A model generated the notes under the pieces. The model had not been told where the DNA came from, searched no databases, and saw nothing but the letters and a program-made list of their open reading frames with translations. A stretch of DNA of 55,115 nucleotides from Spirochaetia bacterium (lineage in GTDB: Bacteria > Spirochaetota > Spirochaetia > CADAEX01), in contig CAXXHA010000018.1 of NCBI GenBank assembly GCA_963662265.2, positions 1 to 55,115 on the forward strand, in the 5' to 3' direction. Shown in pieces: positions 9,006-53,481 of this stretch (position 1 is its first letter; every line of letters starts with the position of its first letter). The position numbers and the translations under genes were made by a program.

Positions 9006-9153
9006 TTGTCGCCTCCTGTTACATTGTTCTTCCGGTTGACCGGATACCCACCTGGATGCAGAGAACCTGAATACATCGGGTTGACGCTGATGGCAATATT
9101 TTGCTGAAGTTCAGCATTATTTGCATGATGTATCCGGTCCGGAAGAAGAAATA

Positions 9154-10161
9154 TTAGTAATCTGCCAGCAGTCTGTCTATAACTTCTTTTGAAAGCCGTT
9201 CTTCAAGCTGAGGCCATGTAACTTTTCTGCAGTGGTCGGCCCATGCTTTAAGTTCCTTGTCATTCATATAGGTAACTTCAATTCCCTTTTCTTCGAGTTT
9301 TTTAGGGAACATCTTGTCATTTTCTTCTGCAACTTTAAGGCTCTCTTTTGAAATTTCCGCTGTTGCTTCCTCTATTATTTTCTGATGTTCAGGTGAAAGA
9401 GATGCCCATACTTCCTTGCTCATAAGGTATGAAGTGTTTTCAAAGAAGTTGTTGTTAATGAGAGCGTATTTAATTACATCGCCGAACTGGAGATAGTTAA
9501 CCATTGCAGGTCCGCCGCTCCATCCGTCTGCAACACCTGTCTGAAGAGCTGTGTAGAGTTCCGCGAAAGGTACGGAAACAGTCTGGAACCCCTGGTCATC
9601 TGCAGTTATTTTAAATACTGCCATTGGAGGCACTCTCAGGAGAATGTTCTTTGAAGATGCCGGATCCTTCATATTGTCGGGTTTTTTTGAAAAACCGAGT
9701 ATTCCGAATCCTTCAACATTGAAACCGAGAAATTTCACATCAAGATTTGAATGGAGTTCTTCCATAATGTCAAACATTGCTGATCCTTTGGCATAGACTT
9801 TTTCTGCTTCAGGATAGTTCATAGCAAGGTAGTGAAGGTAGGTTACATCAAGTCTCTGGTCAAACTGGCTTGGTACTGAGATTGTTGCCATGTCGATTGT
9901 TCCTCTTCTCAGCTCTTCGTATACCTGTGTGTAGTCACCCAGCTGATTGGCGGGATATACCTTGATTTCAATTTCTCCGTTTGATTTTGATTCGACAAGT
10001 TCCTTGAACTTGTACTGAAGTTTGGTTGTTGAGTGGTCAGGCGCATACTGTCCCGCCATTTTTAGAGTTACTTTTTTCCCTCCGTCCTCTTTGCTTCCTC
10101 CGGCAAATACCGGCATGCTGATAAGTGCCAGCACGATCAGGACTGTCAGAATTTTTTTCAT
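9154..10161 (-). CDS. dctP: TRAP transporter substrate-binding protein
   Basis: VYPANQLG, conserved Arg in LRVPP, ELYTALQTGVADG; signal peptide. Confidence 0.93.
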   Translation of the reverse strand: MKKILTVLIVLALISMPVFAGGSKEDGGKKVTLKMAGQYAPDHSTTKLQYKFKELVESKSNGEIEIKVYPANQLGDYTQVYEELRRGTIDMATISVPSQFDQRLDVTYLHYLAMNYPEAEKVYAKGSAMFDIMEELHSNLDVKFLGFNVEGFGILGFSKKPDNMKDPASSKNILLRVPPMAVFKITADDQGFQTVSVPFAELYTALQTGVADGWSGGPAMVNYLQFGDVIKYALINNNFFENTSYLMSKEVWASLSPEHQKIIEEATAEISKESLKVAEENDKMFPKKLEEKGIEVTYMNDKELKAWADHCRKVTWPQLEERLSKEVIDRLLADY

Positions 10162-10194
10162 AGGTTTGCTCCTTTTGAAAATAAATAAAATGAG

Positions 10195-10259
10195 ATGATA
10201 TTCAACTGATATATCAGTTGAATATCATTAATTATCAACCTGAATTTTTCAGCTGTCAA
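10195..10259 (-). promoter_or_regulatory. dctP promoter overlapped by a perfect 34-bp palindromic operator
   Basis: Minus strand TTGACA (10259-10254), 17 bp, GATAAT (10236-10231). Palindrome ATGATATTCAACTGATA|TATCAGTTGAATATCAT at 10195-10228. Confidence 0.75.
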
Positions 10260-10446
10260 GGTATTAATTTTCCGGAATATAGATAAAACTGAATAAAATC
10301 TTTTATTAACGATAACGAAGGATCCAATAATTAAAAATCTGTAATTGATTGAGGCGGCTGTTTTTTTATATTTAATAAGTGAGGTTAAGAAGGGCAGGTA
10401 ATCTGGATTAATAAGGAAATAAGAATCATAATTAGTATATAATGTT

Positions 10447-11424
10447 ATGAGAAAATATAAGAAAATTATTATTCTCGGTTCCGGTTTTTCGAAAGCTGTT
10501 TCTGAAAAAATGCCTGCTATGAAGCAGCTTACCGCGATGCTGAAAAAAGAAACAAATGTGCAGAAATACGGTGCCCTTATTGAGTATGTTGATATTCTGC
10601 GCGACAGGTCAAATGACTGCGATGAACTCACCTCTATTGAAAGCATCTCCAGCCTGATTCTGGGGAAATCTTTTTTTTATAACACATCAGAATCTCTTTA
10701 TTTTGAGTATCTGAAGAATCAGCTTCTGAACTGGCTGTTTGAGTCACTGAACAGGGAAGCTCCTCTGATTGACAGTAACAAGGAGCAGATGACTGCGGAA
10801 TTTGTAAAGTCTGTATCATCTATGCGAAGCAGCGAAGAGCAGAACAATACACTTGTCATGACATTTAATTATGATCTTCTTATTGAAAGGTTAATCAGGG
10901 ATGTTCTTCATGATGAAATATGTACTGATTATATTGTGAAACTCAACAGGTACTCTGATTTATCAGAAGATTCTTCAGATAAATGTGAAAGAAAATTCCG
11001 CTACCTCAAGCTTCATGGATCGTTCAACTGGTTCAGATCTCCCGGCGGGCTGAATTACAACCTGAATAATATCTATCTTGTCAAAGAGAGTGATATGGAG
11101 CGGGAGCTTATTCATCATAATGATATCCCCGTGTTTATTCCCATGATAAGTTCGAAAATCAGCTACAGGCAGGGATCTTTTTATAATGCACTGTGGAACA
11201 TAGCAGAGCGGTATCTTGATCTTTGCGATGAGGTTTCATTCATAGGGTACGGATTTCCTGTAACAGATCTTGATAACCTTAATTTTTTCCTTAAATACAA
11301 GGAAAAGATCCGGGATATTGTGGTTTTTGAAAATCATCCGGCTTTGAGAAAGAGGCTTGAGAAAATTTTTGATTATTCAGAAATAATAAACTGTGATGCC
11401 CTTGAATATATCTGTAATAACTGA
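10447..11424 (+). CDS. SIR2-like (SIR2_2) domain protein, stand-alone
   Basis: IILGSGFS...MP, TFNYDLLIE, YLKLHGSFNW and FIGYGFP.TD motifs. Confidence 0.8.
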   Translation: MRKYKKIIILGSGFSKAVSEKMPAMKQLTAMLKKETNVQKYGALIEYVDILRDRSNDCDELTSIESISSLILGKSFFYNTSESLYFEYLKNQLLNWLFESLNREAPLIDSNKEQMTAEFVKSVSSMRSSEEQNNTLVMTFNYDLLIERLIRDVLHDEICTDYIVKLNRYSDLSEDSSDKCERKFRYLKLHGSFNWFRSPGGLNYNLNNIYLVKESDMERELIHHNDIPVFIPMISSKISYRQGSFYNALWNIAERYLDLCDEVSFIGYGFPVTDLDNLNFFLKYKEKIRDIVVFENHPALRKRLEKIFDYSEIINCDALEYICNN

Positions 11425-11512: not shown

Positions 11513-12100
11513 TTAAAGCTGTTTTTTTGTTTCTATTCTGTTTATTTTAAAATTATAGGAACTTCCTTTTTTATTATCAGTAATCTCAACTGAAAGAGGG
11601 GTAATTATGTCATTTCTTACCGGAAGCTTTACAATATTCCACCAGTTCCCGTCTCTTCCCTTTATATTCGGAATTCCCTCCCTGCCTTTGTAGGTTAAAA
11701 CAGTTGTTCCCTCTTTTTTAACTGAGCAGCTGTACCATTTTGTGTTTGCATGCATCAACTCCTGTCTTCCTATATGGAGAACAATATAACCGAACTCAGG
11801 TATTCTTTTGTAGGCTTTTTCAAAATCAACAGGGGAGGCATTATTTTTTTCAAGCCTTTTTCTGACTTTCTCTTTTTCCTCTTCATGTGTGAGGTATTTA
11901 ATACCTATATATCCGTAATTATCCCTTATGAATTTCTCCGGTTCAATTGAGTAGGAAATCTCTGTTTTTATTTCCGGCTGTAATTTTTTTACCGGGACTG
12001 CTGCTGTTAAAGCCTGTTTTTCAGTTTGACAGCCTGAAAGTATAATAAAAAGGATCAGCGGAAGCAAAATAAGCAGACTGAAATATTTCCTGATAATCAC
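11513..12100 (-). CDS. Hypothetical lipoprotein
   Basis: Hydrophobic signal peptide with lipobox ILSG-C; 195 aa. Confidence 0.7.
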   Translation of the reverse strand: MIIRKYFSLLILLPLILFIILSGCQTEKQALTAAVPVKKLQPEIKTEISYSIEPEKFIRDNYGYIGIKYLTHEEEKEKVRKRLEKNNASPVDFEKAYKRIPEFGYIVLHIGRQELMHANTKWYSCSVKKEGTTVLTYKGREGIPNIKGRDGNWWNIVKLPVRNDIITPLSVEITDNKKGSSYNFKINRIETKKQL

Positions 12101-12261: not shown

Positions 12262-13071
12262 TTACTGCATCAGTAAATCTGTTTTAACTATATTGTCTTC
12301 AGAAACAGGCAGCTTGAAGTCATAATTGCCTTTCAGATTGAACACCATGAATTTGGGAGAAGCAGCAGTATTTAAGGCAATATTTTCAACCATATCCTTG
12401 TGTATAAACTGTTTTACCCAGCCGTATGTTCCTGCTTTTGTTGTTTTCTGTTTATCTTCTTTGATGAATATCCATTCATTTTCAAGACCCAGTATCAGGT
12501 ATGATGAGAAGAATTTTGCAAAGAATGGCAGTTGCTTGTCATTCGCTGCAAATGGCTGCTGGTAGAAGAATTTCTGAATCTTGTCATTGCTGCTTATTGT
12601 ATCACCTGTGATATTGAATAGTTTAAGGTTCTGTTTGATCAGGAATTCGAGCTCCCTGCAGTGATAAAAACTTTTTCCATGCTCGATTTTTGAAACAGCT
12701 TTTCGTTCCCTGAAACTTTCCACAAAAGGAACAATATAGTCATTTCTGCAGGAATTGAAATTAATCTGATATGTTCTCTTTGAATGATAGATTTTAAGTA
12801 TTCCTTTCAGCAGTGCCGATGTCCACTCTATTGAAGATATATCATTGAAATCAAGAAAATTGATCAGTCCCTGTTCAGCATATTCGATTCCGCTGCGGCA
12901 GAGTGTAAGCACTTTGTTTTTATCCTTGATAAACTGAAACGGAAGAGGGGGAAACAATATTGAATAATTTTTTCCTGATCCGGCTTCATCTGTTTTGATA
13001 TCTGCAGGTATATCTTCAGGGGTTTTAATTTTGCTGGGCCAGTAGGTCATTGTATCAATAGAGTTTTTCAT
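12262..13071 (-). CDS. Hypothetical protein (possibly tandem bacterial PH-like domains)
   Basis: 269-aa ORF with RBS GAGGAG; two beta-rich halves. The fold assignment is a guess. Confidence 0.65.
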   Translation of the reverse strand: MKNSIDTMTYWPSKIKTPEDIPADIKTDEAGSGKNYSILFPPLPFQFIKDKNKVLTLCRSGIEYAEQGLINFLDFNDISSIEWTSALLKGILKIYHSKRTYQINFNSCRNDYIVPFVESFRERKAVSKIEHGKSFYHCRELEFLIKQNLKLFNITGDTISSNDKIQKFFYQQPFAANDKQLPFFAKFFSSYLILGLENEWIFIKEDKQKTTKAGTYGWVKQFIHKDMVENIALNTAASPKFMVFNLKGNYDFKLPVSEDNIVKTDLLMQ

Positions 13072-13315: not shown

Positions 13316-14371
13316 GTGTCAGTTAAAAGGGAAATAATAAAGCCGGGCAAGATTAAAAAAACGGAATTCTTTTCATCTTTCAGCAGCAGGGAACTCTCTG
13401 TCATTGCAGAGAACTGCAGCTTCAGGATGGTTAGAGAGGGGGAGGCTGTATTCCGGGAAGGAGACAGTTCTTCTGAACTGTTTATTGTTGACAGCGGCGA
13501 AATAATAATCAGAAAACAGGACAATGAATTCAATGATATTGATATTGCCAGGTTTCTCAAAGGCGACTGCTTCGGAGAGCTTGATATGCTTACCGGATCG
13601 AAGCGAAAGGAATCAGCACTGGCGGAAAAAGATACATCTCTGATAGTCTTTCCGGGGAAGGGGGTGAAGTTTCAGGACATGCTTACAATGCATCCTCAAG
13701 TTTCTGCCCTGATACTTCATAAATTCCTTGTCCAGATATCCGGGAGAATAAGAAACGCCAACACTCTCGTGAGTGAAAATTCCCCGCTTGTACAGGAGCT
13801 CTCCCGCCAGGTCTACCGCGATAAACTCACCGGGCGGTATAATAAAACCTACTTTGAAGAGAAAATGGAAGAGCTTCTTGCCTCCTCTTCAGGGAAAGCT
13901 GCAGTCATAATGGTTAAACCTGACAATTTCAAGGCTGTAAATGATGCCTACGGCCATGATGCCGGAGACAGGGCGCTGATAATCATGACAAAAGAGCTTC
14001 ACGATTATATGCCTGATAACAATGTTGTTGTCCGGTATATGGGTAATGAGCTTGGTATATATATTCCGGATGCCGGCAGGGAGACTGCTTTTAACGAAGC
14101 TGTCAGGATAAGGGACTTTCTTTCATCTCTTGATCTGAAAAAAGCATGTGAGGGCAATCCCTTTACTCTTTCTGTGAGTCAGGGGATATCTCTTTATCCG
14201 GAGCATACAGAAGATCCTGATACTCTTATTCTTCTTGCCCACAAACTTCCGCTTATAGGGCGTGCAATGGGGGGGAACAAAATACTTTTTCCCGAAGATG
14301 CAGATGACAGTAAAGGGGCCGGAGGATTAATAAAGTCCGGAAAAAATGAGAAGGCTCAGCGAGGGGAATAA
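13316..14371 (+). CDS. cNMP-binding domain + degenerate GGDEF domain protein
   Basis: CNB motifs (VFREGD, FGEL...R); DKLTGRYN, KPDNFKAVNDAYGHDAGD; signature replaced by RYMGNEL. Confidence 0.88.
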   Translation: MSVKREIIKPGKIKKTEFFSSFSSRELSVIAENCSFRMVREGEAVFREGDSSSELFIVDSGEIIIRKQDNEFNDIDIARFLKGDCFGELDMLTGSKRKESALAEKDTSLIVFPGKGVKFQDMLTMHPQVSALILHKFLVQISGRIRNANTLVSENSPLVQELSRQVYRDKLTGRYNKTYFEEKMEELLASSSGKAAVIMVKPDNFKAVNDAYGHDAGDRALIIMTKELHDYMPDNNVVVRYMGNELGIYIPDAGRETAFNEAVRIRDFLSSLDLKKACEGNPFTLSVSQGISLYPEHTEDPDTLILLAHKLPLIGRAMGGNKILFPEDADDSKGAGGLIKSGKNEKAQRGE

Positions 14372-16527
14372 TGAAGGAAAATATTGCTCTTCTCAAGAAA
14401 ATAGATATTTTATCTGAGCTTGAAGATGAAGAAATAAAACAGCTTTATTCGCTTATGAGACAGGTAAATCCTGAAGCAGGAAGAGCTATCTTTAACCAGG
14501 GTGATCCCGGCAACGAGATGTATGTTATCCTGAGCGGATCGATATCAATATCTGTTGAAACATCTGCCGGTGGAATGGTTGAGGTTGCAGTTCTCGGCTC
14601 AGGGCAGTTCCTGGGGGAAATGTCTATTTTCGACAATGCACCCCGTTCTGCAACATGCATAGTGAAAGAAAACGCAGAGCTTCTTTCATTCAGCAAGGAT
14701 GACTTTTTCGACCTGATTCACAATTATCCTGAGACTTCAATAAAAATACTCCACCGCATGCTGAATACGACAATAGAGAGGCTTAACAAGACAGGCAGTT
14801 TTCTTTCAGATATGGTTAAATGGGGGGAAAAAGCGAGAAAGCGTGCTGTTACAGATGAGTTTACATCGCTTTACAACAGGCGTTTCCTTGATGATTCTCT
14901 TGAAGATGTTTTTGCAAAAGCATCACTTACTTCTGAACCACTGTCTCTGGTAATGACAGATCTTGATAATTTTGGAACACTGAATAAGGAATATGGTGAA
15001 TCTGTAGGAGACAGCATAATTCTGGCGGCAGCGGAAATTTTTAAATCAGTTTTCAGGGAAGATGATATTCTTGCAAGGTATGGGGGAGATGAATTCACCT
15101 TTATACTGCCTAATACAGAGGCAGATGCTGCCCTGAAGCTGTGTGAGAAAGCAGCAGGAAGACTGAGGATGATTGATTTACTGAAAAAAAAGAAAGGCAG
15201 CATTAAAAAAGTCACTGCCAGTATCGGTGTTGCCTCATATCCTGATCATGCAGACAGCTGTGAAAAGCTTATGGAAATGGCAGACAAGGCAGTATATACC
15301 GCCAAAGAGTGGGGAAGGGACAAGGTTGTTGTCTACAGCAGCGAAGGGAGGATAAACAAGACAAAGATTGCTACTGTAAGAGAAAAAAATAATATAATAG
15401 AAAGAATAACAGATGTATTTACTGATGGAGACAGCTTTCTTGTACTCGGGCACCGTAATCCGGATGAGGACTGCGCTGCTTCTATTATTGCAGTGTCACT
15501 GCTCCTGAGAAAATTCGGGAAAACAGTTACTGTTTATGTAAAAACAGGATTTCAGAATAAATTCTCCTTTCTTTATAATATCGGCAAGTATAATTCTATA
15601 AAATTCATCGATGCAGATGATGAAGCAGAGGAAAAATACGATTCAGTTATAATTGTGGATACTCCCAAAAAGGCCATGATTGAGATGGGGCCTGTGATTG
15701 GATCATTGTTTGATAACCTCGAAATACCGAAAATTGAATTTGACCACCATCTTGGTGCAGACAGCGGTTATACAGGCGATAAGAACTATTCTCTGGTGGA
15801 TGAAGCCTCTTCCGCATGTGAACTCATCGGGTATTATGCTCTCAAGCTGAATGACCGTAAGGATCTTCTTGAGAAATTCGGAATTGATGATCTTTTTACA
15901 AGGAATTTTGTACTCTCTGTGATTACAGGTATTATAAGTGATTCAAAGATGGGTAAATATCTGAAATCCAACAGGGAGAAATGGTTTTACAGGTATTTCA
16001 GTTCTCTTTTCAACGAACTGTTGTTCGACAAAACAGACTCAGGATCAGGGAATTTTTCCACAATGGAAGATGTATTCAGTGAACTTGAAAAACTTTCGGA
16101 AGAAGAGGATTTATGCTTCCGGTATATTTCCGGAAAAATTAAAAAAACAGAATATTTTCAATATGCTGTTTTGACGGCAGAAGATATGGATTATCTTTAC
16201 AGAAATTTTCCCGATGAGGTAATTGTAACTGTTGCACGTTATTCTGCAGACATACTGGCTGAAAACAGCGGACACCTTAGCCTGTTTGTCTATTTTGATA
16301 ATCCGGACAGATCTGATCTTGTTCAGTTCAGAATCCGCCGAAACAAGGATTACAGGAAGCTTGATCTTAGAATGCTTATCAGTAAATTCAGCATAGAAAA
16401 CGGCGGAGGTCATCCCGGGGCAATCGGGTTTCGAATTGAGAGGGGCATGATAGATGATATCGAGTCATTTTCTGAGGATTTCATTAAAAATACTGAAGAT
16501 GTGATAAGAAAAATTGATAAAAAGTGA
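14371..16527 (+). CDS. cNMP-binding + GGDEF + DHH/DHHA1 phosphoesterase fusion protein
   Basis: CNB motifs (IFNQGD, FLGEMSIFDNAPRSAT); REDD-x5-GGDEF and ADKAVYTAKEWGR; DHH motifs GHRNPDED, VDTP, FDHH, GIISDS; DHHA1 GGGHPGA. Confidence 0.9.
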   Translation: MKENIALLKKIDILSELEDEEIKQLYSLMRQVNPEAGRAIFNQGDPGNEMYVILSGSISISVETSAGGMVEVAVLGSGQFLGEMSIFDNAPRSATCIVKENAELLSFSKDDFFDLIHNYPETSIKILHRMLNTTIERLNKTGSFLSDMVKWGEKARKRAVTDEFTSLYNRRFLDDSLEDVFAKASLTSEPLSLVMTDLDNFGTLNKEYGESVGDSIILAAAEIFKSVFREDDILARYGGDEFTFILPNTEADAALKLCEKAAGRLRMIDLLKKKKGSIKKVTASIGVASYPDHADSCEKLMEMADKAVYTAKEWGRDKVVVYSSEGRINKTKIATVREKNNIIERITDVFTDGDSFLVLGHRNPDEDCAASIIAVSLLLRKFGKTVTVYVKTGFQNKFSFLYNIGKYNSIKFIDADDEAEEKYDSVIIVDTPKKAMIEMGPVIGSLFDNLEIPKIEFDHHLGADSGYTGDKNYSLVDEASSACELIGYYALKLNDRKDLLEKFGIDDLFTRNFVLSVITGIISDSKMGKYLKSNREKWFYRYFSSLFNELLFDKTDSGSGNFSTMEDVFSELEKLSEEEDLCFRYISGKIKKTEYFQYAVLTAEDMDYLYRNFPDEVIVTVARYSADILAENSGHLSLFVYFDNPDRSDLVQFRIRRNKDYRKLDLRMLISKFSIENGGGHPGAIGFRIERGMIDDIESFSEDFIKNTEDVIRKIDKK

Positions 16528-16552
16528 TAATTCTGTATCCGGAGAATTGATT

Positions 16553-17116
16553 ATGGATAAAAAAATGAGATGTGAATGGTGCGGCAATGATCCTGTCTAT
16601 ATAAAATATCATGATGAAGAATGGGGAATCCCTGTTCATGATGACAGGAGACTCTTTGAAATGCTAATTCTTGAGGGGGCACAGGCAGGGCTTTCCTGGA
16701 TAACAATTTTAAAAAGAAGGGAAGGGTACAGAAAGGCATTTGATAATTTCGATGTTGATAAAGTTGCTCTCTATGATGATGCAAAGAGGGAGAAACTCCG
16801 CAGTAACCCTGAAATCATAAGGAACAGGCTGAAGATAAAATCCGCAGTGAATAATGCCCAGGTTTTTATGGATATACAGAAAGAATTCGGCTCTTTTGAC
16901 ACTTATCTCTGGGGTTTTACAGATAACAAACCTGTAAAACATCATTTCAGAGACCTGTCTGAGCTCCCTGCAAATGATGAACTCTCAGATATTATTTCAA
17001 ATGATTTGAAAAAACGGGGAATGTCTTTTGTAGGAACTACTATCATATATGCATATCTTCAGGCGGTTGGTGTGGTCAATGATCATACAAGAAACTGTTT
17101 CATGTATACTGAATAG
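16553..17116 (+). CDS. tag: DNA-3-methyladenine glycosylase I
   Basis: RCEW, YHDEEWG, LEGAQAGLSW, IIRNRLKI and VNDH...C motifs. Confidence 0.95.
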   Translation: MDKKMRCEWCGNDPVYIKYHDEEWGIPVHDDRRLFEMLILEGAQAGLSWITILKRREGYRKAFDNFDVDKVALYDDAKREKLRSNPEIIRNRLKIKSAVNNAQVFMDIQKEFGSFDTYLWGFTDNKPVKHHFRDLSELPANDELSDIISNDLKKRGMSFVGTTIIYAYLQAVGVVNDHTRNCFMYTE

Positions 17117-34243: not shown

Positions 34244-37200
34244 TTATTTAAAGTCACCAAGTATATCGATAAGAGGTCTTACTATGACTTCTTTTTTCTT
34301 AAGATATTTAATAGCCCTTGTAGCTGCGTGAGCTGCTGATGTTGTTGTCGTATAAGTCAGCTTTCTCTTCACAGCTTCAATTCTTATCTCATTATCGCTC
34401 TTTTCTGCAAATTTACCAAGAGGGGTATTGATCAAAAGTGAAAAATTTCCCGCTTTTATGTGGTCAATTACGTTAGGACGCCCTTCGTGGATCTTTAAAA
34501 CCACCTCGGAGAAGATTCCGTTGTCAAAAAGGAAGTTAGCTGTTCCCCTTGTCGCCGCAATTTCAAAACCCAGGGATTTAAGCTCCTTCACAATTGGGAG
34601 GATTGTTTTTCTGTCGTTTCTGTTAACTGACACAAAAGCTTTCCCCTCTGTCGGCAGTACACCTCCTGCAGCATCCTGCGCCTTTGCAAAAGCCTCTCCG
34701 AATGATGAACCTGTGCCTATTACTTCTCCTGTTGATTTCATTTCAGGTCCCAGAACAGGGTCATAGTCTGAGAACCTGTCGTTGGAGAATACTGCTTCCT
34801 TGACAGCCCATCCTGTCTGGGGCTGACCGATACCGATGAAGCATTTATCATCTTTTATGAAGTGAGCCTTCTCTTTTGCAAGCCCCTGCTCAACCAGGTC
34901 TTTTCCCCTCCAGATCCTTACGGCTGACTGTATCAGGTTGATTCCTGAAGCCTTTGAAAGGAACGGTACTGTACGGGACGCCCTCGGGTTAACTTCAATT
35001 ATATAGAGTTCATCATCCTTGACCGCATACTGGATGTTGAGGAATCCCACGACTCCTATTTCCCTTGCAATTCTAACAGTTGCTTCAGTCATTTCATTTA
35101 TGACTTTTTCCGTAGACTTGTATGCCGGGAACACGCAGGCTGAGTCTCCCGAATGGATCCCTGCCGCTTCTATGTGCTGCATTATGCCGGCGATATATAC
35201 GTTTCTGCCGTCGCATATAGCATCTATGTCATATTCAAATGCATCTTCGAGAAACTGATCCACAAGTATCGGCCTGCTCTCTGAAACCTCTATTCCTCTC
35301 TGGAGATAAAGGTCAAGCTCCTCTTTGTTGTAGGCTATGAACATGCTTTTTCCGCCCAGAACGAAAGATGGACGGAGGAGTACAGGGTATCCCATTTCTT
35401 CCGCGCATTTTTCAATCTGGTCGAAGCTTGTCGCTGTCCTGTTGTCAGGCTGCCTTAAGGATAGTTTATTCATCAGGTCGGCAAAGAGCCCCCTGTCTTC
35501 AGCTGTATTTATTGCATCAACAGAGGTCCCCACAATATTAACACCCCAATCTGCAAGTTCTTCTGCCATGTTTAGGGGTGTCTGTCCCCCCAGCTGTACA
35601 ATGACATCTTTTACACCCTCTTTCCTGATAATGTTTTTAACATCCTCAGTTACAAGGGGTTCTATGTAGAGCCTGTCCGATACATTGAAGTCTGTTGATA
35701 CTGTTTCAGGGTTTGAGTTGACCATGATGGATTTAACACCTTCATTCCTGTATGCGATTGAAGCCAGTGTACAGCCTGTATCAAACTCGAGTCCCTGTCC
35801 TATCCTGTTCGGGCCTGATGCAAGAATTATTACTGCATCTCCTTCAGTTTTTCCCCCCTCATCAATCTCTCCGAAGGTTGAATAGAAGTATGGAGTGTCT
35901 GCCTTAAACTCGCCTGCGCATGTATCAACAAAGTGGTAGGAGGGATTTATATCCATCTCTTCTCTTATCTTTTCTATTTCAGATGCAGTTTTGCTTGTTA
36001 TTGCCGCAATCCTCTTATCGGAAAATCCGCTCTGCTTTGCATCCATGAGGAGTTTTTTGGAAAGTTCTCTTGTCTTTAGTTTTTGTTTCAATTCTTGCAA
36101 TTGATGCCATGTTGTAGAGAAACCACTTGTCATACTTTGTTTTCTCATAAAGCATGTCTATGGCGCCGTATCCCTCCCTGAGGAGTACTGTATAGATTGC
36201 ATATATTCTTAAAGGATGAAGTGTGGTGAGCATAGGCTCGAGTTCTTCATCTGTTGGTTCGCCGGGAAGGGAAGTCAGTCCCTCTTTTCCTATTTCAACA
36301 GATCTTATTGCCTTGTTAAGCGCCTCGTTGAATGTTCTTCCAAGAGCGAGAGCCTCCCCGACAGATTTCATCTGTGTGCCGAGAGTCTCGTAGCTTGTCG
36401 GGAATTTTTCAAGTTCGAAGCGTGGTATTTTAACAGCCACATAGTCAAGTGCCGGTTCAAACGCGGAAACTGTCTCTCCTGTAATCTCGTTTGTAATCTC
36501 ATCGAGTGTGTAACCTACAGCAAGCCGTGCAGAACAGCGGGCAATAGGAAATCCTGTTGCCTTGCTTGCAAGGGCAGAGGAGCGAGAAACCCTTGGATTC
36601 ATCTCGATTACAATCATTCTTCCTGTATCAGGTTTTACCGCAAACTGTACATTTGATCCTCCGCAGTCAATCCCGATTGCCCTCAGGATGTCAAGGGAAG
36701 CTGTTCTCATCTTCTGGTATTCCCTGTCTGAGAGACTCTGTATAGGTGCAACTGTTATACTGTCACCTGTATGAACACCCATCGGATCGACATTTTCGAT
36801 TGAACAGACAATAACTGCATTGTCGGCAGGGTCCCTGATAACCTCCATTTCGAACTCTTTCCACCCTATAAGGGATTCTTCAATGAGAGCTTCGTGTACA
36901 GGACTTTCAGAGAGAGCTTTTTCTATCTGATCATTAAACTCAGCCTCTGTATAGGCAATGCTGCCTCCCTTTCCGCCGAGTGTGTAACTGGGCCTGATTA
37001 CGAGGGGAAGTCCAACTTCCTTTTTAAGTTCAATAGCATCTTTAACACATTTTGCAACAACAGATCTCGGAACATCGAGTCCGATTTCCTTGATAACATC
37101 TTTGAACTTGCCCCTGTCCTCTGCAAGCCTGATTGCTTCTATGCTTGCCCCGATAACTTCAACATTGTATTTATCAAGAATCCCTGCATCATAAAGGTCG

Positions 37201-37499
37201 AGTGAAAGATTAAGCCCTGTCTGCCCCCCGATTGTGGGGAGGATAGCATCAGGCCTTTCCCTGCTTATTATCTCTTCAAGGTAGGGTACTGAGAGGGGTT
37301 CCATATAGATCCTGTCTGCAATTCCCGGTGTTGTCATTACAGTCGCGGGATTCGGGTTTACAAGTATTACCTCGTAGCCGTCCTCCTTGAGCGCTTTTAC
37401 AGCCTGTGTTCCCGAGTAATCAAACTCGCAGGCCTGTCCTATAACTATCGGTCCAGAACCGATTATAAGTATTTTATGTATATCTTTTCGTGCCGGCAC
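34244..37499 (-). pseudogene. carB: Carbamoyl-phosphate synthase large subunit with one +1 frameshift (probably a sequencing error)
   Basis: [39 protein letters not shown] and an MGS domain. The two ORFs join if one base is removed from the T5 run at 36080-36084 (RIETK-LKTRE). GTG start at 37499 after RBS AAGGAG. Confidence 0.9.
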
Positions 37500-37531
37500 T
37501 TTATTCTCCTTTTCTTCTCTCTGCTGTGTAT

Positions 37532-38819
37532 TCATATTAAGCAGAAGGGCCCTTTTTGGTTATATCTTCCGTTCAAGGGGGTTTGTCTGCACTTTGCTTT
37601 TATTACTCCCGGAATTTCTATTCCCGGAATAACCCGTGTTTCAGTTAAGAGATCCCCTTTTGAAGCATATTCAACAAAATCATCAAAGATCCATGATGAA
37701 TCAACCGGACCCGGAGCAGCCTCGGGATGAAACTGTGCAGTAAGGATATTTAAATCGTCACAGACAAATCCCTTCCTGGCTCTTGTCATTCGCATTTATG
37801 AATCTTGCTTCAACATTTGAAGGAAGAGTTTCTGTATCAACTGCAAACCCGTGGTTCTGGGAAGTTACAAATACCCTTCCTGTCCTGATATCTCTTACAG
37901 GGTGGTTGAGGCCGTGATGGCCGAATTTCATCTTGTAGGTTTTTCCTCCCAGTGCCTGGCTTATAAGCTGGTGTCCAAGACATATTCCGAAAAGAGGTTT
38001 TTTACCTATCAGGTTTTTTATCATCTCTATCTGTTTTCCGAGTACGGCAGGGTCTCCCGGTCCATTTGAAATCAGGATACCGTCCGGGTTTCCCTTCAGT
38101 ATTTCATCTGCAGCTGCTGTATCGGGGAATAATGATACTCTGCATCCCCTTTCTGTAAACTCTCTTATTATGTTTGCCTTGATACCGCAGTCCACGACTG
38201 CCATGTGTACCTTGCCATTCGGATTTATGACTTCCCTGCTTTCTGTTCCAACCTCTTTTATCAGGTTCTGACCTTCCATTGCAGGAATTGTTGAAATAAA
38301 CCTTTTTACAGAAGCTATATCCTCTTCTGTTAGTACAGTGTTTCTGCTGTCGGAAGGGCGAACTATAAGGCCGTTTGGGCTTCCATTATCTCTTATGTGG
38401 AGTGTTAGTCTTCTTGTATCTATTCCGGTGATACCGGGGGTATCGTTGTCTCTCATGAATCTGTCGAGAGTCATTCTTCCTTCGGGTACAGGACCTCTGT
38501 AAAGCTTTTTGACAACAAGGCCTGCCAGTTTTATACCCGGAAGTCTTCTTCCGTTTTCCGGACCTATTTCGCTCCACTCGTTGTCATCCCCGTAGTTTCC
38601 CGCGTGAGGATAGGTCATGGTAACTATCTGACCGGTGTAGGAAGGATCTGTCAGTATTTCGTGATAACCTGACATTCCTGTGTTGAATACTACTTCCCCT
38701 GAACCCTTTTTTGTGATTTCAAATTTTTCAAGTTCATGTGTTCTGGGAGGAAGTGCTCCGAAAGAATAGCCGGGGAAGATATTCCCGTCGGCAAGGACTA
38801 GATAACAATGTTCCTGCAT
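37532..38819 (-). pseudogene. carA: Carbamoyl-phosphate synthase small subunit with a +1 frameshift near 37770 (probably a sequencing error)
   Basis: GEVVFNTGMSGY, SNGPGDP, GICLGHQ and SQNHGF; catalytic QFHPE lies in the shifted frame. Confidence 0.9.
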
Positions 38820-45009: not shown

Positions 45010-46080
45010 ATGGGGCAGGGTAGGTTAAAAAAATACGCATTTATCAATGCAAAGCTGAGAGCCAGAATCAGCAATATTCTTTCAGATGAAGTTCTTGATC
45101 AGATGATAAAGGCACGGTCGCTGCCTGAAGCAATAAGGGTGCTTCATGACACCCCTTTTCAGATCATAGAAGAGGTTTACAGCAGAACAGGTGACCTTAA
45201 ACTTGCGGAACTTGAACTTTACCGGAAAGAAATATCACTTTACCATGAGCTTGAAAGATATGTCAGGGATGATGTCCTTGATTTTGTAAAAGCTCTTACA
45301 AGAAAATATGAGGTTGAAAACCTCAAGGCAGCGCTGAGGCTCTGGTTTGACAGGGCAGTGCGAAAAAGAAATATTGATGACTATACAGGTTATCTTTTCA
45401 GGGAAACAATCCATTACAATCTTCATGTCGATGAAATCATAAATGTAGAAACAATTGAAGGGGTTATCGAGATCCTTTCAGGCACACCTTATGCACAGAT
45501 CATAAAAGACAATTCTGCAGAGCTTGAAATTACAAAGACACTTTTTTCGATAGAAACAGCACTCGACAGATATTTCTACAAACATTTAAATGAAAAAGCC
45601 AAAAAACTTGAAAAACCAGACCTCGATATAACAAAGAGGATGATAGGTGTGGAAATTGATATGGAAAACATATCATGGCTTATCAGGTTCAGGGATTTCT
45701 ACAAGATGACTATGGCTGATGCGCTCAAAAACATGATCCCTTCCGGTCATCACCTGGATCAGAAAGCTCTTGAAGATGCTTTTTCAACAGGAGATTCTGC
45801 AGATATTATCAAGAATCTTATAAGTAAAAAGTATTCAAACCTTTCTTCAATGCTTGGTATGCAGAGTTCTGATAACCAGGGAAAACTTGTACTTGTAAGC
45901 AGACTCCTTGACCAGATTATTCTGTATGAGGTCAAGAAGGTAAAAGGCGGCTACCCGTTTAACATTGGTATTGTTCTTGCTTATTTTGTTCTCAAGAAGA
46001 ATGAGATGAGAAAGGTTATGACCATACTAAATGCTAAATATTATAATATAAAACAGGATAGAATTAAGAGTGTAATATGA
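45010..46080 (+). CDS. atpC: V/A-type ATPase subunit C
   Basis: YAFINAKLRA, L..TP(F/Y), E.ALDRY and EID..N motifs. Confidence 0.88.
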   Translation: MGQGRLKKYAFINAKLRARISNILSDEVLDQMIKARSLPEAIRVLHDTPFQIIEEVYSRTGDLKLAELELYRKEISLYHELERYVRDDVLDFVKALTRKYEVENLKAALRLWFDRAVRKRNIDDYTGYLFRETIHYNLHVDEIINVETIEGVIEILSGTPYAQIIKDNSAELEITKTLFSIETALDRYFYKHLNEKAKKLEKPDLDITKRMIGVEIDMENISWLIRFRDFYKMTMADALKNMIPSGHHLDQKALEDAFSTGDSADIIKNLISKKYSNLSSMLGMQSSDNQGKLVLVSRLLDQIILYEVKKVKGGYPFNIGIVLAYFVLKKNEMRKVMTILNAKYYNIKQDRIKSVI

Positions 46081-48122
46081 TGATGTTTACCACAAAAATG
46101 TGCCAGCTTGCAGCAATTGTTCTTGACCAGGATGCAGATAATGTAACCAAGGAACTGCTGAAGCAGGGTGTTCTTCATTTTGTTAAAGTTACAGAAGTAG
46201 AAGAGGATGCTAAAAGCATGATAACTTCTGTTTCTCCCAGAGTTTCACAGAGTAAAATACAGGATACCAGAAAGAGAATTGAGACTTTTTTCAACCTGAT
46301 TGACTACAGCCCTGTTGATATCAAGGAACTGGATATTTCAAAGCTCAATCCTGTAAATCTTGAGGACAGCAACGGAGAATTAGATATTGTTGCTTCCAAA
46401 CTGCAGAAAATCAGGGATAAGCAGAAAGGAATTCAGAAGGAGATCCACAAGCTTGAAGAAATAGACAGACAGCTTAATCTTTTTTCCGATCTCGGTACTT
46501 CCCTTGAAGGCAGGGAGAAATATTCATTTCTTTCTATAATAACCGGTAAAATTGAAGCATTAAAAGAGGAAGAGCTTGTAAATGCATTTCAGACTCTCCC
46601 GTCAGTACAGATAAAACTTTCTGAAAGTTCAGGTTATTCCACTATTCTCCTCATTACAATGAAGAGAGATTTAGGAAGAGTTGAAAAAATCCTTGAAAAA
46701 TTTGAATGGGATGAAGTTGAACTTCCGGATGATATAAACGGCCTCGGCAGTGATGCGAAGTCTGAAATTGCGGAAAGACTTAAATCACTGAAGGAAAAGC
46801 AGGATGAAATAAATAATTCTGCAAAAGAATTTGTCCTTGAAAAGAAAGAATATCTTGATGATATGTGGTCAAATTTGAGGATGAATGAGCTTTTCTACAG
46901 AATTCAGTCTTTCTACAGTAAAACATCCAGAACAATGCTGTTTTCAGGATGGCTTCCGGCTGCAAAAAGGGAGACGCTTGAGGAAAGTATCAGGGATATA
47001 ACAGAAGGAAGGTGTTATCTTGAGTGGAGCGATCCGAAAGAGATAAAGAAGGAAAAGAAGAAAGAGCCTTCTGTGCCTGTAAAAATGAAGAACCCGGAAT
47101 TTCTTTCCCCGTTTGAAATGCTTGTTAAAAACTATGCAATTCCTGAATACGGAACAGTTGATCCCACACCCATAGTAGCTGTTGCATATCTTATAATGTT
47201 CGGCCTTATGTTCGGCGATGTGGGACATGGATTTGTTATCGGAATTATCGGTATATTCGGAACTTTTATGCTTCGTAAAGAAGCAGGTACCGCTTTTCAC
47301 AAACTTTTCCAGCTCATGATATGGTGCGGAGTCTCGGCAATGATAACAGGGGCTCTTTTCGGTTCCTATTTCGGCTATAAATGGTTTGCTCCCATATGGT
47401 TTGATTACCACGGAATTATCGCAGGTCATGCTGGACCCGGTCTTATAACAGATATCGGCGGTATTCTTCTTATAACTATTTATTTCGGTATTGCAGTTAT
47501 CGGGCTTGGACTTGTTCTTAACTGGGTGAACTGTATTTCAAAGGGCAACTGGTTTAAGCTTTTCATGGACAAGGGGGGGCTCCTCGGAGGCTGGATGTAT
47601 TTTGCAGGTACATATGTGGCATTTTTCTTTGCGCAGCACAACTACAAAGAGCTTCCTGAAAGCAATCTTCTTTTCTTCCTTGTCGGTCTTCCTGCACTTC
47701 TTTTTATGTTCAAGCCGCCGCTTGAGTTTTATCTGCATAACAGGATGCACCCGGAAAACAAGCAGAAGTTTACTGTTTTTTCAATTATGAACTTCGGAAT
47801 GGAATGGCTTGTTGAGATGCTTGAAGTATTTTCAGGATATCTTGCAAACACTCTTTCATTCATGCGAGTTGCAGGGCTTGGTATTGCCCATGTAAGTCTT
47901 ATGATCGCTTTTGATCAAATTGCAAAAATGGTTACACCGGACGGCGGAATCAATATCTGGTCAATTCTTGTACTATTTGCAGGTAATGTTCTGGTAATCG
48001 GACTGGAGGGCCTTAGTGCCGGTATTCAGTCTTTAAGATTAAATTATTATGAATTCTTTTCCAAATATTTCAGCGGTAACGGCAAGGCTTATGCTCCGAT
48101 TTCCCTGAAAGGAAACAACTAA
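46077..48122 (+). CDS. atpI: V/A-type ATPase subunit I (a)
   Basis: DPTP, FGLMFGDVGHG, NTLSFMRV (essential Arg) and IQSLRLNYYEFF. Confidence 0.93.
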   Translation: MMMFTTKMCQLAAIVLDQDADNVTKELLKQGVLHFVKVTEVEEDAKSMITSVSPRVSQSKIQDTRKRIETFFNLIDYSPVDIKELDISKLNPVNLEDSNGELDIVASKLQKIRDKQKGIQKEIHKLEEIDRQLNLFSDLGTSLEGREKYSFLSIITGKIEALKEEELVNAFQTLPSVQIKLSESSGYSTILLITMKRDLGRVEKILEKFEWDEVELPDDINGLGSDAKSEIAERLKSLKEKQDEINNSAKEFVLEKKEYLDDMWSNLRMNELFYRIQSFYSKTSRTMLFSGWLPAAKRETLEESIRDITEGRCYLEWSDPKEIKKEKKKEPSVPVKMKNPEFLSPFEMLVKNYAIPEYGTVDPTPIVAVAYLIMFGLMFGDVGHGFVIGIIGIFGTFMLRKEAGTAFHKLFQLMIWCGVSAMITGALFGSYFGYKWFAPIWFDYHGIIAGHAGPGLITDIGGILLITIYFGIAVIGLGLVLNWVNCISKGNWFKLFMDKGGLLGGWMYFAGTYVAFFFAQHNYKELPESNLLFFLVGLPALLFMFKPPLEFYLHNRMHPENKQKFTVFSIMNFGMEWLVEMLEVFSGYLANTLSFMRVAGLGIAHVSLMIAFDQIAKMVTPDGGINIWSILVLFAGNVLVIGLEGLSAGIQSLRLNYYEFFSKYFSGNGKAYAPISLKGNN

Positions 48123-48157
48123 AAAAGGAAAAACAATTAAGGGAGGAGGTTTGGATT

Positions 48158-48529
48158 ATGTTCAACCCAAAAAAAGACTTTAAAAGAAAGGTGAGTTTCA
48201 GTCTGGTACTTCTTTTTGCAGCACTTGCAATGTTTGCTGTTGGAAGCGTTACAGAGGCAGTGGCACAGGATCATGCAGCAGTGGCTAAAGCTGAGATGTC
48301 AGAACAGGAAGCAGGGGTCGCTAAATTCGGTCTTATTGCGGCAGCTATTGCTTTCGGTTTCGGAGCACTCGGAGCAGGTCTTGCAATTGGTAATGTAGGT
48401 TCTGCAGCTATGGGCGCTATTGCTGAAAAACCGGAACTTGCATCTCAGGCACTTATCTTTATTGCTCTTGCGGAAGGTCTTGTAGTATTCGGTTTTATTA
48501 CTGCACTCATGATTCTCGGTAAAGTGTAA
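48158..48529 (+). CDS. atpK: V/A-type ATPase proteolipid subunit K (c)
   Basis: GALGAGLAIG..GSAAMGAIAEKPE...ALAEGLVVFG hairpin preceded by a leader. Confidence 0.92.
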   Translation: MFNPKKDFKRKVSFSLVLLFAALAMFAVGSVTEAVAQDHAAVAKAEMSEQEAGVAKFGLIAAAIAFGFGALGAGLAIGNVGSAAMGAIAEKPELASQALIFIALAEGLVVFGFITALMILGKV

Positions 48530-48536
48530 GGGAACG

Positions 48537-48842
48537 ATGAAATATTTTGTTATCGGCGATGAAGACGCTGTACTTGGATTCGGTCTTGTCGGGGTTAGAG
48601 GCGTAAAAGCTGAAAACCCCCAGGAGGCTGAATCTGCCTTTAACACAGCTCTTGAAGACAGTGATGTCGGAATCGTTATTATAGAGGACCGAATTGCTGA
48701 TATGATACGGCCCCTTGTCGACCGGTACATTTTCACGGAACAGTTTCCGCTGATTGTAGAAGTACCCGGCCGTGAGGGGAAAGACCCTTCAAGACCGGGA
48801 ATACGGGCTATGGTTAATGAAGCCATAGGGATAAAACTTTAA
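48537..48842 (+). CDS. atpF: V/A-type ATPase subunit F
   Basis: VIGDEDAVLGFGLVGV...PLIVEVP...AIGIKL. Confidence 0.93.
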   Translation: MKYFVIGDEDAVLGFGLVGVRGVKAENPQEAESAFNTALEDSDVGIVIIEDRIADMIRPLVDRYIFTEQFPLIVEVPGREGKDPSRPGIRAMVNEAIGIKL

Positions 48843-48861
48843 AACTATCAGGAATAACAAT

Positions 48862-49494
48862 ATGAAAACGTCCAGTGAAGATAGAAGTGAATTGATAGCC
48901 GGTATTAAACGGGATGCAGAAGCGGAAGCAAAAAGAATAATTGAAGATGCTGAAAGAACTGCATCAGATAAAATGCAGGCTAAGGATATGCAGGTAAAGT
49001 CTATTGAGAGAGACACTGCAAAGAAAATTGATCATCAGATTAATATTATTGAGAAAAACAGTTTATCTTCTATCAAGGTTGAAAAAAAACGGATTGCTCT
49101 GCAGATAAGGGAAAAACTGATAAATACAGTTATCGATAAAGTCAGGGAAAAAATACGTGATAAGGCTGATGCAGACGAGTATAAAGATATCCTCAAAGGG
49201 TGGATTCTTGAAGCCGCTATCGGTCTTGGAGAAGAAGAAGTTGAAGTCAACGGCTCCAAGAGAGAGCTTGAAATCATGACAGACAGCTACATAAAGGATG
49301 TTGAGAAAGAATACCATGATCTGACAGGGGGAAAGATCTCTATCAAAAAATCTGATAAAAATCCTCTTTTTGCTCAGGGTATTGTTCTTACATCTTTAAA
49401 TCATAAAACAGCATTCAACAATCAGGTACCTACCAGGCTGTTGAGGTATCAGTCTGATATGCGGAAAACTATTCACAGCGAATTTTTTGCATAA
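48862..49494 (+). CDS. atpE: V/A-type ATPase subunit E
   Basis: N-terminal coiled coil (I..DAEAEAKRII..A), C-terminal G(I)VL...FNN domain; operon position. Confidence 0.85.
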   Translation: MKTSSEDRSELIAGIKRDAEAEAKRIIEDAERTASDKMQAKDMQVKSIERDTAKKIDHQINIIEKNSLSSIKVEKKRIALQIREKLINTVIDKVREKIRDKADADEYKDILKGWILEAAIGLGEEEVEVNGSKRELEIMTDSYIKDVEKEYHDLTGGKISIKKSDKNPLFAQGIVLTSLNHKTAFNNQVPTRLLRYQSDMRKTIHSEFFA

Positions 49495-49662
49495 TTTTTA
49501 AGTACTTGAAATAAAAAGGGCTTTTGTGTTTTCAGGTTCTGATCCTTTTTACCCGGATTTCCGATCCGGGATACAGAGGTCAGTCTTCCCCCCTCTTTTT
49601 GCATAAATGACGGAATTACGGGGTAAATAACTGCAGAAGTTTCTATAATATAGAGGTTCATA

Positions 49663-52840: not shown

Positions 52841-53481
52841 TGAGAAATAATGTTGCTCCTACAAAGACAAACCTGCTCTCACTCGGACAGGAGCTGAAGT
52901 TTGCAAAACTCGGTTATGAGCTTCTTGATCAGAAAAGAAATATTCTGATTATCGAACTCTTAAACCTTGTTGACCAGGCCTCTGATCATGAGGATAAGGT
53001 CAACAAGGCTCTTTCCGAGGCATACAGAACTCTTGAAGAGGCAGTTCTGCACATGGGGAAGCTCAAAGTAACCCAGGTGGCAAGCGCTATAAATATTGAG
53101 AGCCAGGTTAATATCTCCCAGCGTAAGGTAATGGGAGTGGGGCTCCCTGTGGTAGATACATCTTTTGAAGATTATCCCCCCTATTACAGCCCCATGGGTA
53201 CAAGTTTCTGGATTGACAGCTCTCTCGAGGATTTTAAATCTGTACTCCAGGTAATGGGAAAACTCGCAGAGCTGAAGATTTCCATAATGCGGCTTGCACG
53301 GGAAGTTAAGAAAACTATCCGAAAGGTAAATGCTCTTGAAAAAATTGCTATACCTGAGCTTCAGGAGACTGTAAAATATATAGAGAACCGTCTTGAAGAA
53401 AATGAGAGGGACATGATTATCCTTCTTAAAATGGTCAAGACAAGGCTTGAAAAAAAGAAAGCTAAAATGAAACAAAAATGA
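52840..53481 (+). CDS. atpD: V/A-type ATPase subunit D
   Basis: PTK..L......A..G..LL..KR and T.RKVNALEK..IP.......I...LEE.ER. Confidence 0.95.
   Translation: MRNNVAPTKTNLLSLGQELKFAKLGYELLDQKRNILIIELLNLVDQASDHEDKVNKALSEAYRTLEEAVLHMGKLKVTQVASAINIESQVNISQRKVMGVGLPVVDTSFEDYPPYYSPMGTSFWIDSSLEDFKSVLQVMGKLAELKISIMRLAREVKKTIRKVNALEKIAIPELQETVKYIENRLEENERDMIILLKMVKTRLEKKKAKMKQK

Follow-up and report, generated by a model that had tools for sequence, protein, structure and literature searches.

A soluble cNMP-GGDEF-DHH/DHHA1 fusion conserved in Spirochaetota and encoded beside a dead-GGDEF paralogue: a candidate cNMP-gated enzyme of cyclic di-GMP metabolism

What does a DHH/DHHA1 phosphodiesterase do when it is joined to a GGDEF cyclase whose active site is intact? 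Active GGDEF cyclases are known as fusions to EAL or HD-GYP erasers, and to our knowledge the only well-known protein that combines GGDEF and DHH domains is GdpP, in which the GGDEF domain is dead and of unclear purpose, and which acts on cyclic di-AMP (c-di-AMP). The question is raised by a stretch of 55,115 nucleotides from a Spirochaetia bacterium (assembly GCA_963662265.2, contig CAXXHA010000018.1, positions 1 to 55,115), the whole of which we analyzed and call the window. At positions 14371-16527 of its forward strand, an open reading frame (ORF) running from ATG to stop without interruption encodes a protein of 718 amino acids (aa) in which a domain binding cyclic nucleoside monophosphates (cNMP), a GGDEF domain, a DHH domain and a DHHA1 domain follow one another, as seen from the ORF, Pfam, an alignment of homologues and an AlphaFold2 model.

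Pfam places, at E values well outside the reach of chance, a cNMP_binding domain at aa 35-119 (E = 7e-23), a GGDEF domain (PF00990) at aa 159-317 (E = 8e-41; 140 bits against a cut-off of 23.8) and a DHH domain at aa 356-491 (E = 2e-11), and the TIGR00254 GGDEF model scores 148.5 bits against a cut-off of 37.4. The Pfam DHHA1 match at aa 620-706 reaches 19.8 bits, under the cut-off of 25.9, and this domain is better backed by its invariant GGGH and QFRxRR motifs and by its fold match than by the Pfam score. Each signature motif occurs once: GGDEF at aa 238-242, HRNPDED at 361-367, DTP at 430-432, DHH at 458-460, GIISDS at 520-525, FRIRR at 653-657 and GGGHPGA at 678-684. No membrane segment was found in the protein, the highest Kyte-Doolittle mean over 19 residues being 1.35, and the AlphaFold2 model of the whole protein, built from an alignment of 119 rows, contains only globular domains and linker helices (mean predicted local distance difference test score, pLDDT, 85.0, with aa 137-168 below 50). 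A sequence-only reading of this locus had described a soluble fusion with no transmembrane (TM) segment, a full set of DHH and DHHA1 motifs and an intact GGDEF signature; the Pfam domains, the hydropathy maximum and the motif positions all agree with that description, and the GGDEF signature is kept in 119 of 119 homologues.

The same arrangement is widespread in related genomes. Our search of 5.8 billion clustered proteins returned 638 matches at E <= 1e-3, of which the 120 best were listed, and 119 of these 120 are proteins of 705-769 aa with the same cNMP, GGDEF and DHH domains and 44-75% identity (self aside), the odd one being a 452-aa fragment (P0073). They come from metagenome-assembled genomes (MAGs) of Spirochaetia, Spirochaetales and Spirochaetaceae and from Oceanispirochaeta crateris (48% identity), and among these 120 they are named only "diguanylate cyclase" or "hypothetical". 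Complete genomes with the fusion include OY764868.1, OZ245363.1 and that of O. crateris. Since free DHH/DHHA1 genes of the same subfamily exist, an assembly or gene-calling error could in principle have joined a cyclase gene to a neighboring DHH gene, but we give this next to no chance: the reading frame of 14371-16527 is unbroken, the best homologues that match it in length and domains include some whose contigs reach 4.5 Mb, the fusion was also seen in two chromosome-level MAG records that are independent of each other, and the junction residues K330 and N340 are conserved. The fusion is thus not an assembly chimera, and its presence in related genomes, on which the sequence-only reading depended, is established.

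The N-terminal sensor (aa 35-119; 14473..14727, forward strand) is a CAP-type domain whose phosphate-binding cassette, GEMSIFDNAPRSAT (aa 82-95), contains G82, E83, R92, S93 and A94, and so fits the Gly-Glu ... Arg-Ser/Thr-Ala pattern that we take to mark ligand-competent domains of the CAP family. Across 119 homologues, G82, R92 and S93 are invariant, E83 and A94 are conserved in at least 90%, and the R-S-A triplet is present in 118 of 119. A long helix (aa 120-159; 14728..14847, forward strand), predicted with low confidence over aa 137-168, leads from the sensor to the cyclase, and its residues W151, G152, A155 and R158 are invariant in the same homologues.

The GGDEF domain (aa 159-317; 14845..15321, forward strand) has its signature at 15082-15096 and, at aa 229-232, an RxxD I-site (REDD) that is kept in 89 of 119 homologues. 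On the guanine side, N205 and D214, assigned by motif position and not by structure, are present in 119 of 119. Hypr GGDEF enzymes, which make cyclic GMP-AMP, carry Ser where canonical GTP-specific cyclases carry Asp, as described in PMC6456294. A Hypr assignment was ruled out by the Asp found at this selectivity position in 119 of 119 homologues, and Asp in place of the Hypr Ser points to a plain GTP-specific cyclase.

In the C-terminal half, the DHH catalytic domain (aa 356-525; 15436..15945, forward strand) contains GHRNPDEDC, DTPK, DHH and GIISDS, i.e., motifs I-IV as they are named in PMC9757072, and H361, D365, D367, D430, T431, K433, D458, H459, H460, G520 and D524 are invariant in 119 homologues. 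The DHHA1 substrate-binding domain (aa 596-706; 16156..16488, forward strand) carries QFRIRR at aa 652-657 in addition to GGGHPGA, with Q652, R656, R657 and G678-H681 invariant. The two are separated by a helical insert of about 60 aa that is particular to the subfamily (aa 530-590; 15958..16140, forward strand), seen in the model as helices at 534-554, 565-573 and 577-587 and evident also from the roughly 380 columns aligned by Foldseek to targets of roughly 323 residues; positions conserved in at least 90% of the homologues include K532, R535, Y540, F543, N561, E579 and C582. GGDEF, DHH and GGGH are each present in 119 of 119 homologues and QF[RK]xRR in 118 of 119, and this conservation of both catalytic centers and of the ligand pocket indicates purifying selection.

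The protein shares with GdpP/YybT, the c-di-AMP phosphodiesterase of Firmicutes (TM-PAS-degenerate GGDEF-DHH-DHHA1), an N-terminal sensor and a GGDEF domain directly before DHH-DHHA1, and its catalytic domain matches the GdpP fold (5xsi, E = 1.1e-14). GdpP, however, has TM and PAS segments, whereas this protein has no TM segment, no Pfam PAS domain and a cNMP sensor instead; the GGDEF domain of GdpP is degenerate, whereas the one here is intact in 119 of 119; and the GGDEF_GdpP profile (PF24898) scores only 21.7 bits on it, under the cut-off of 30. The contrast with GdpP drawn in the sequence-only reading is therefore sound. A degenerate GGDEF domain does accompany the phosphodiesterase in both cases, in GdpP as its own domain in cis (PMC9779919) and here in trans from a neighboring gene. 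By TM segment, PAS domain and degenerate GGDEF the protein is not a GdpP, and by the equivalog model described below it is not an NrnA, although it is partly like both. Passages of two reviews name GGDEF as an accessory domain of DHH-DHHA1 proteins in the GdpP sense only (PMC9779919, PMC1183210).

We compared the phosphodiesterase module with known families, both by profile and by fold. For aa 335-718 (384 aa), the best NCBIfam model is the NrnA equivalog (NF053633), but at 30.2 bits against a cut-off of 350, and two relatives gave 33.9 bits and no match. When a four-sequence profile of the module (A2) was searched against all Protein Data Bank (PDB) sequences, the highest scores were those of TM1595 (TmPDE; 42.1 bits) and Borrelia burgdorferi DhhP (9r7o; 37.3 bits), followed by family II pyrophosphatase (27.1 bits) and the GdpP catalytic domain (26.7 bits). 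Foldseek against the PDB gave a similar order, with TM1595 (8e-17), B. burgdorferi DhhP (1.4e-15) and Staphylococcus aureus NrnA/Pde2 (7e-15) ahead of the GdpP catalytic domain (1.1e-14), a Deinococcus radiodurans RecJ-like protein (1.3e-14) and the NrnA enzymes of Mycobacterium smegmatis and Bacillus (about 1e-13); template modeling scores normalized to the target ranged from 0.56 to 0.76, with NrnA-type entries at the top (0.75-0.76). The predicted fold is thus that of the small stand-alone DHH/DHHA1 nucleotide phosphodiesterases, with a modest edge for TM1595 and DhhP, and by both profile and predicted fold the module appears no nearer to GdpP than to these two.

The best profile and fold matches, i.e., TM1595, B. 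burgdorferi DhhP, S. aureus NrnA/Pde2 and Bacillus subtilis NrnA, share with the module DHH motifs I-IV, GGGH and an Arg-rich strand, and the module differs from them in the roughly 60 extra residues, predicted as three helices, between DHH and DHHA1 and in being fused to a sensor and a cyclase. NrnA-like DHHA1 domains carry R-x-R-x-R, as that motif is defined in PMC9757072, whereas R654-x-R656-R657 (QFRxRR) is found here, with a register relative to NrnA that is not set by structure.

A search of 1.84 billion cluster representatives with the A2 profile gave 1430 proteins at E <= 1e-3, of which 140 remain at E <= 1e-10 and 84 at E <= 1e-30. The strong matches are of three kinds: the fusion, at about 700-750 aa and matching from residue 335-355 or so; free proteins of about 380-410 aa consisting of DHH/DHHA1 alone, with a Met-Lys start exactly at the domain boundary; and one 543-aa protein, P0131, with cNMP and DHH domains and without GGDEF. 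With a free form as query, a second search identified 351 relatives at E <= 1e-20; their contigs reach 299 kb in some cases, and they are named "DHH family phosphoesterase [Spirochaetota]" or, by the Joint Genome Institute (JGI), "nanoRNase/pAp phosphatase". The catalytic residues of 118 free-standing relatives are conserved as in the fusion, and an atlas look-up returned free DHH clusters only, commonest in Spirochaetota.

A quick maximum-likelihood tree of 50 rows (19 fused, 22 free, P0131 and, as outgroup, 8 free proteins of a sister clade), with branch support from the Shimodaira-Hasegawa-like approximate likelihood-ratio test (SH-aLRT) only, was built. Left out were the N-terminally truncated P0123, P0124, P0127, P0144, P0169 and P0170, the odd P0179, the full-length P0161, P0165 and P0252, a four-row clade (P0235, P0239, P0250 and P0253), fragments shorter than 340 aa and distant NrnA-like rows. 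Support for the ingroup is 100% by SH-aLRT, with free forms at its base and also making up the sister clade, and the fused or free label changes at least 9 times, 6 of these changes being required by branches supported at 95 or higher. P0131 groups as sister to a free-standing form (SH-aLRT 95%), and the same mixing of fused and free forms is seen in a quick tree of 74 rows. The fusion therefore appears to have arisen within a spirochaete family of free enzymes, with the link made or broken repeatedly, which is itself a signal of functional association. Its nesting among free spirochaete enzymes makes the GdpP-like domain order look convergent, and the recurrence of the phosphodiesterase under cNMP control, P0131 included, fits a signaling substrate better than a housekeeping one. 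The outgroup clade (P0185, P0190, P0193, P0196, P0203, P0216, P0219 and P0223) consists of free DHH/DHHA1 proteins of about 390-400 aa in which the motif I region differs at the N terminus, e.g., "Y.DPDA.GS" in place of "GH.NPDEDC".

Immediately upstream of the fusion gene is a second gene on the same strand (13316..14371) encoding a 351-aa protein in which Pfam identifies a cNMP-binding domain (aa 38-116) and a degenerate GGDEF domain (aa 167-309). Its stop codon overlaps the start of the long gene (TAATG), with a Shine-Dalgarno-like GAGGGG upstream of the ATG, an arrangement that reads as translational coupling. This partner is a paralogue of the N-terminal half of the long protein (22% identity over 286 aa, E = 9e-32) in which MGNEL (aa 242-246; 14039..14053, forward strand) replaces GGDEF. 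The loss is general: 385 partner homologues were found at E <= 1e-30, and in none of the 120 best, which were used for motif counts, is a canonical GG[DE]EF present, the position being taken by xGN[E/A]x (MGNEL in 35, KGNAM in 35, MGNEN in 19 and other variants in the rest). In the 3 aligned partners, N209 and D218 on the guanine side do not vary, and the block "PDNFKxxNDxYGHxAGD" around them is kept.

The pairing of the two genes recurs elsewhere. We retrieved three related loci, L001, L002 and L003, of which L002 is a 2.9-kb fragment too short to show the pair; the same two genes, in the same order and with the same overlap, are present in the window, in L001 (72% identity) and in L003 (42%), i.e., in 3 of 3 full loci, and in one MAG the partner and the long protein have the adjacent NCBI locus tags B6241_03465 and B6241_03470. 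As a wider proxy for co-location we used identical size of the longest contig, which gives lower bounds for the best 120 of each list: by this proxy at least 34 of 120 partner homologues match a long homologue and at least 4 a free DHH form, while no long homologue among the matches listed does so with a free DHH form.

Structure prediction points to a physical association of the two products. A complex of aa 1-335 of the long protein with the partner scored 0.65, a level reached by 116 of 157 solved complexes and by 2 of 215 mismatched pairs, and the best of 3 controls scored 0.00; at least 91% of contacts are shared between runs, and the partner has a pLDDT of 81 or more. In the predicted complex the two chains meet through the helix that follows each cNMP domain (residues 116-159 in the long protein and 123-166 in the partner), which in the long protein is the segment that links sensor to cyclase.

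On this evidence we favor, at somewhat less than an even chance, the reading that the protein is a soluble, dimeric, cNMP-gated enzyme of cyclic di-GMP (c-di-GMP) metabolism with two working catalytic modules, for the second of which we infer the substrate. Its sequence supplies an intact CAP-type cNMP pocket, a canonical guanine-specific GGDEF site and a complete DHH/DHHA1 motif set. Binding of cyclic AMP (cAMP) or cyclic GMP (cGMP) would shift the long post-sensor helix and so set whether two GGDEF domains meet for c-di-GMP synthesis. The C-terminal module would dimerize like its stand-alone relatives and would hydrolyze a nucleotide from this pathway. The likeliest candidate is pGpG, split into 2 GMP by the phosphodiesterase B (PDE-B) reaction, and c-di-GMP itself is possible; synthesis and clearance would then be brought together in one regulated particle. 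The short paralogue may pair through the post-sensor helix as a regulatory subunit, either non-catalytic or half-catalytic.

We favor pGpG because the module is repeatedly tied to a guanylate cyclase and to cNMP sensors, because TM1595 cleaves pGpG, and because PggH provides a precedent: TM1595 is described as hydrolyzing linear dinucleotides, pGpG included, and PggH as a pGpG-specific DHH/DHHA1 enzyme (PMC8861645). For the regulatory steps, cGMP is described as enhancing c-di-GMP synthesis by XC_0249, a precedent for cNMP-to-GGDEF control (PMC3770947), phytochrome cyclases are described as using coiled-coil register and passing through pppGpG (PMC6005682), and degenerate GGDEF domains are described as able to act as GTP sensors (PMC12943098).

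Several observations weigh against this reading. By sequence and predicted fold, linear and cyclic substrates, or guanine and adenine ones, do not appear to be separable for the DHH module: GdpP, NrnA/Pde2, Rv2837c and RecJ-like proteins all match it in Foldseek at E values of 1e-14 to 1e-12, NrnA-type entries and not TM1595 lead on template modeling score, and the NCBIfam NrnA model gives only 30 bits against its cut-off of 350. The arrangement of domains in the AlphaFold2 model is not trustworthy (predicted template modeling score, pTM, 0.46). The source of a pGpG substrate is a further difficulty, since pGpG comes from EAL enzymes and not from cyclases, which leaves a cyclase-PDE-B fusion without obvious kinetic logic, and no EAL, HD-GYP, PilZ or nucleotide cyclase gene was found in the 55-kb window. 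As for the partner, the shared-contig count is a proxy for co-location only, the partner alignment used in the complex prediction had 3 rows only, the score of the predicted complex may mirror solved CAP-family homodimers that form through this helix, and, the chains being paralogous, a homodimer would probably score equally.

The weak separation of substrates gives room to a different pairing of activities, the alternative offered in the sequence-only reading, in which the GGDEF domain makes c-di-GMP while DHH/DHHA1 degrades c-di-AMP and/or pApA like GdpP, Pde2 and Borrelia DhhP, so that one cNMP input would raise one dinucleotide messenger and lower the other. That DhhP, which belongs to the spirochaete c-di-AMP pathway, is the second-best solved relative (profile 37.3 bits, fold 1.4e-15), that the GdpP catalytic domain matches too (1.1e-14), and that GdpP is described with the same GGDEF-DHH-DHHA1 order (PMC9779919) make this worth keeping in view; we nevertheless consider it unlikely, as no adenine-specific feature was identified in the module and its recurrent fusion to a guanylate cyclase with an intact site points more simply to a guanine pathway. 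We also doubt, rather strongly, that the DHH/DHHA1 part is an ordinary nanoRNase/pAp phosphatase whose dimer serves as a scaffold for two GGDEF domains and whose substrate is unrelated to signaling. NrnA is indeed the best NCBIfam model, JGI calls the free forms nanoRNase/pAp phosphatases, these are abundant (351 at E <= 1e-20), and stand-alone DHH/DHHA1 enzymes are described as forming side-by-side dimers (PMC8861645). Yet the NrnA score is far below its cut-off, the subfamily forms a small, separate group (84 clusters at E <= 1e-30, but 1430 once the threshold is relaxed to E <= 1e-3) with a conserved 60-aa insert, the module has been joined repeatedly to cNMP sensors, whether or not a GGDEF domain is present, and even the free form shares contigs with the dead-GGDEF partner (at least 4 of 120 by the longest-contig proxy), none of which a housekeeping enzyme would lead one to expect.

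A further scheme is the asymmetric cyclase of the sequence-only reading, in which a heterodimer of active and dead GGDEF domains would form the first bond only and release linear pppGpG, which the tethered DHH/DHHA1 module would cleave or trim. It would account for a dead-motif partner that is conserved as such (0 of 120 best homologues canonical) with its guanine-side residues kept, and that is translationally coupled and predicted to pair with the N-terminal half of the long protein (0.65 against 0.00 for the control); diguanylate cyclases are moreover described as passing through pppGpG, which some variants release (PMC6005682, PMC6456294). We give this scheme little credence, because the predicted interface is the post-sensor helix and not the GGDEF faces, 46 of the 120 best partners have Ala even as the fourth residue of the motif (e.g., KGNAM), cleavage of pppGpG to GTP and GMP would, on balance, only convert GTP to GMP in a futile cycle without apparent benefit, and the stand-alone relatives are known for 5′-monophosphorylated substrates. 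Equally slim, in our judgment, are the prospects of a cNMP-switched hetero-oligomer in which a dead GGDEF domain facing an active one would yield only pppGpG, processed by DHH/DHHA1, and two active GGDEF domains would yield c-di-GMP; were it true, it would amount to an "abortive cyclase" switch occurring in nature, or else to signaling by a linear dinucleotide, with a new substrate class for DHH/DHHA1.

The reading that we prefer, of a cNMP-gated enzyme of c-di-GMP metabolism, has partial counterparts in three further systems. XC_0249 of Xanthomonas campestris, a cGMP-stimulated cNMP-GGDEF protein that we liken to ours by its description in PMC3770947, has the same N-terminal two-domain module and likely the same cNMP-to-c-di-GMP logic, whereas it lacks a phosphodiesterase module and is not described with a dead-motif paralogue as partner. 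PggH, the PDE-B of Vibrio cholerae, is likewise a DHH/DHHA1 enzyme, is described as dedicated to the c-di-GMP pathway, and has a structured helical interdomain linker in place of a loop (PMC8861645), but it is stand-alone, restricted to Vibrio and has one long linker helix where three are predicted here; it was absent from the 50 Foldseek rows listed for the 718-aa protein. The degenerate GGDEF domain of the Caulobacter crescentus CC_3396 type, described as a GTP-binding regulator (PMC12943098), resembles the partner in having kept its nucleotide-side residues, lost its catalytic signature and been accompanied by a phosphodiesterase; in our system the putative regulator would act in trans, and the phosphodiesterase is DHH/DHHA1 and not EAL.

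Around the pair, gene content varies. In L001, a gene convergent on the end of the pair (9112-10401, reverse strand) encodes an HD-GYP-type protein (Pfam HD_5, E = 1e-29) that scores 117 bits, below the cut-off of 400, with the NCBIfam model of NosR-family c-di-GMP phosphodiesterases; by sequence it is a putative c-di-GMP eraser beside the pair, in one genome only. At the corresponding position, a gene for 3-methyladenine glycosylase is found in the window (16514-17116), and a fragment of a DDE transposase in L003 (9179-9730). Divergent from the pair in the window are two reverse-strand genes, 12262-13071 and 11513-12100, neither of which has a Pfam family and whose arrangement was not seen in L003; the 269-aa product of one has a counterpart in the same location in L001 (71% identical over 269 aa), and the 195-aa product of the other starts with a hydrophobic leader resembling that of lipoproteins. 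Neither promoter nor terminator scans exceeded shuffled sequence; 12 promoter-like sites were counted, and shuffles averaged 12.0.

Elsewhere in the window, a forward-strand ORF of 325 aa (10447-11424) resembles SIR2_2 weakly (23.4 bits, where the cut-off is 24.5), and a 162-aa ORF on the opposite strand overlaps it. The large subunit of carbamoyl-phosphate synthase is encoded by two overlapping reverse-strand ORFs of 506 aa and 634 aa (34244-36148 and 36015-37535), both with pre-ATP-grasp and ATP-grasp domains, which reflects either a natural split or a frameshift. A V-type ATPase operon (45010-53481, forward strand; subunits C/AC39, I, E, A, B and D) is followed by a universal stress protein gene (53523-54011).

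Our full-text literature search, which covered open full text but not InterPro architecture tables, found no description of a cNMP-GGDEF-DHH protein or of any fusion of an active GGDEF domain to DHH, in line with the view of the sequence-only reading that this architecture is not already characterized. The family described here joins a GGDEF cyclase with an intact site to an NrnA/DhhP-like hydrolase, is conserved across many free-living Spirochaetota, and is seen beside a dead-GGDEF paralogue in every full locus (3 of 3). Oceanispirochaeta crateris, a cultured relative whose homologue is 48% identical, makes experiments feasible. The family thus offers a handle on how pGpG or c-di-GMP is removed, and by which enzyme, where bacteria depend on DHH/DHHA1 proteins instead of Orn, on the role of a degenerate GGDEF domain next to a DHH/DHHA1 phosphodiesterase, i.e., the question posed by GdpP and here posed in trans, and on how cAMP or cGMP may be wired into dinucleotide signaling.

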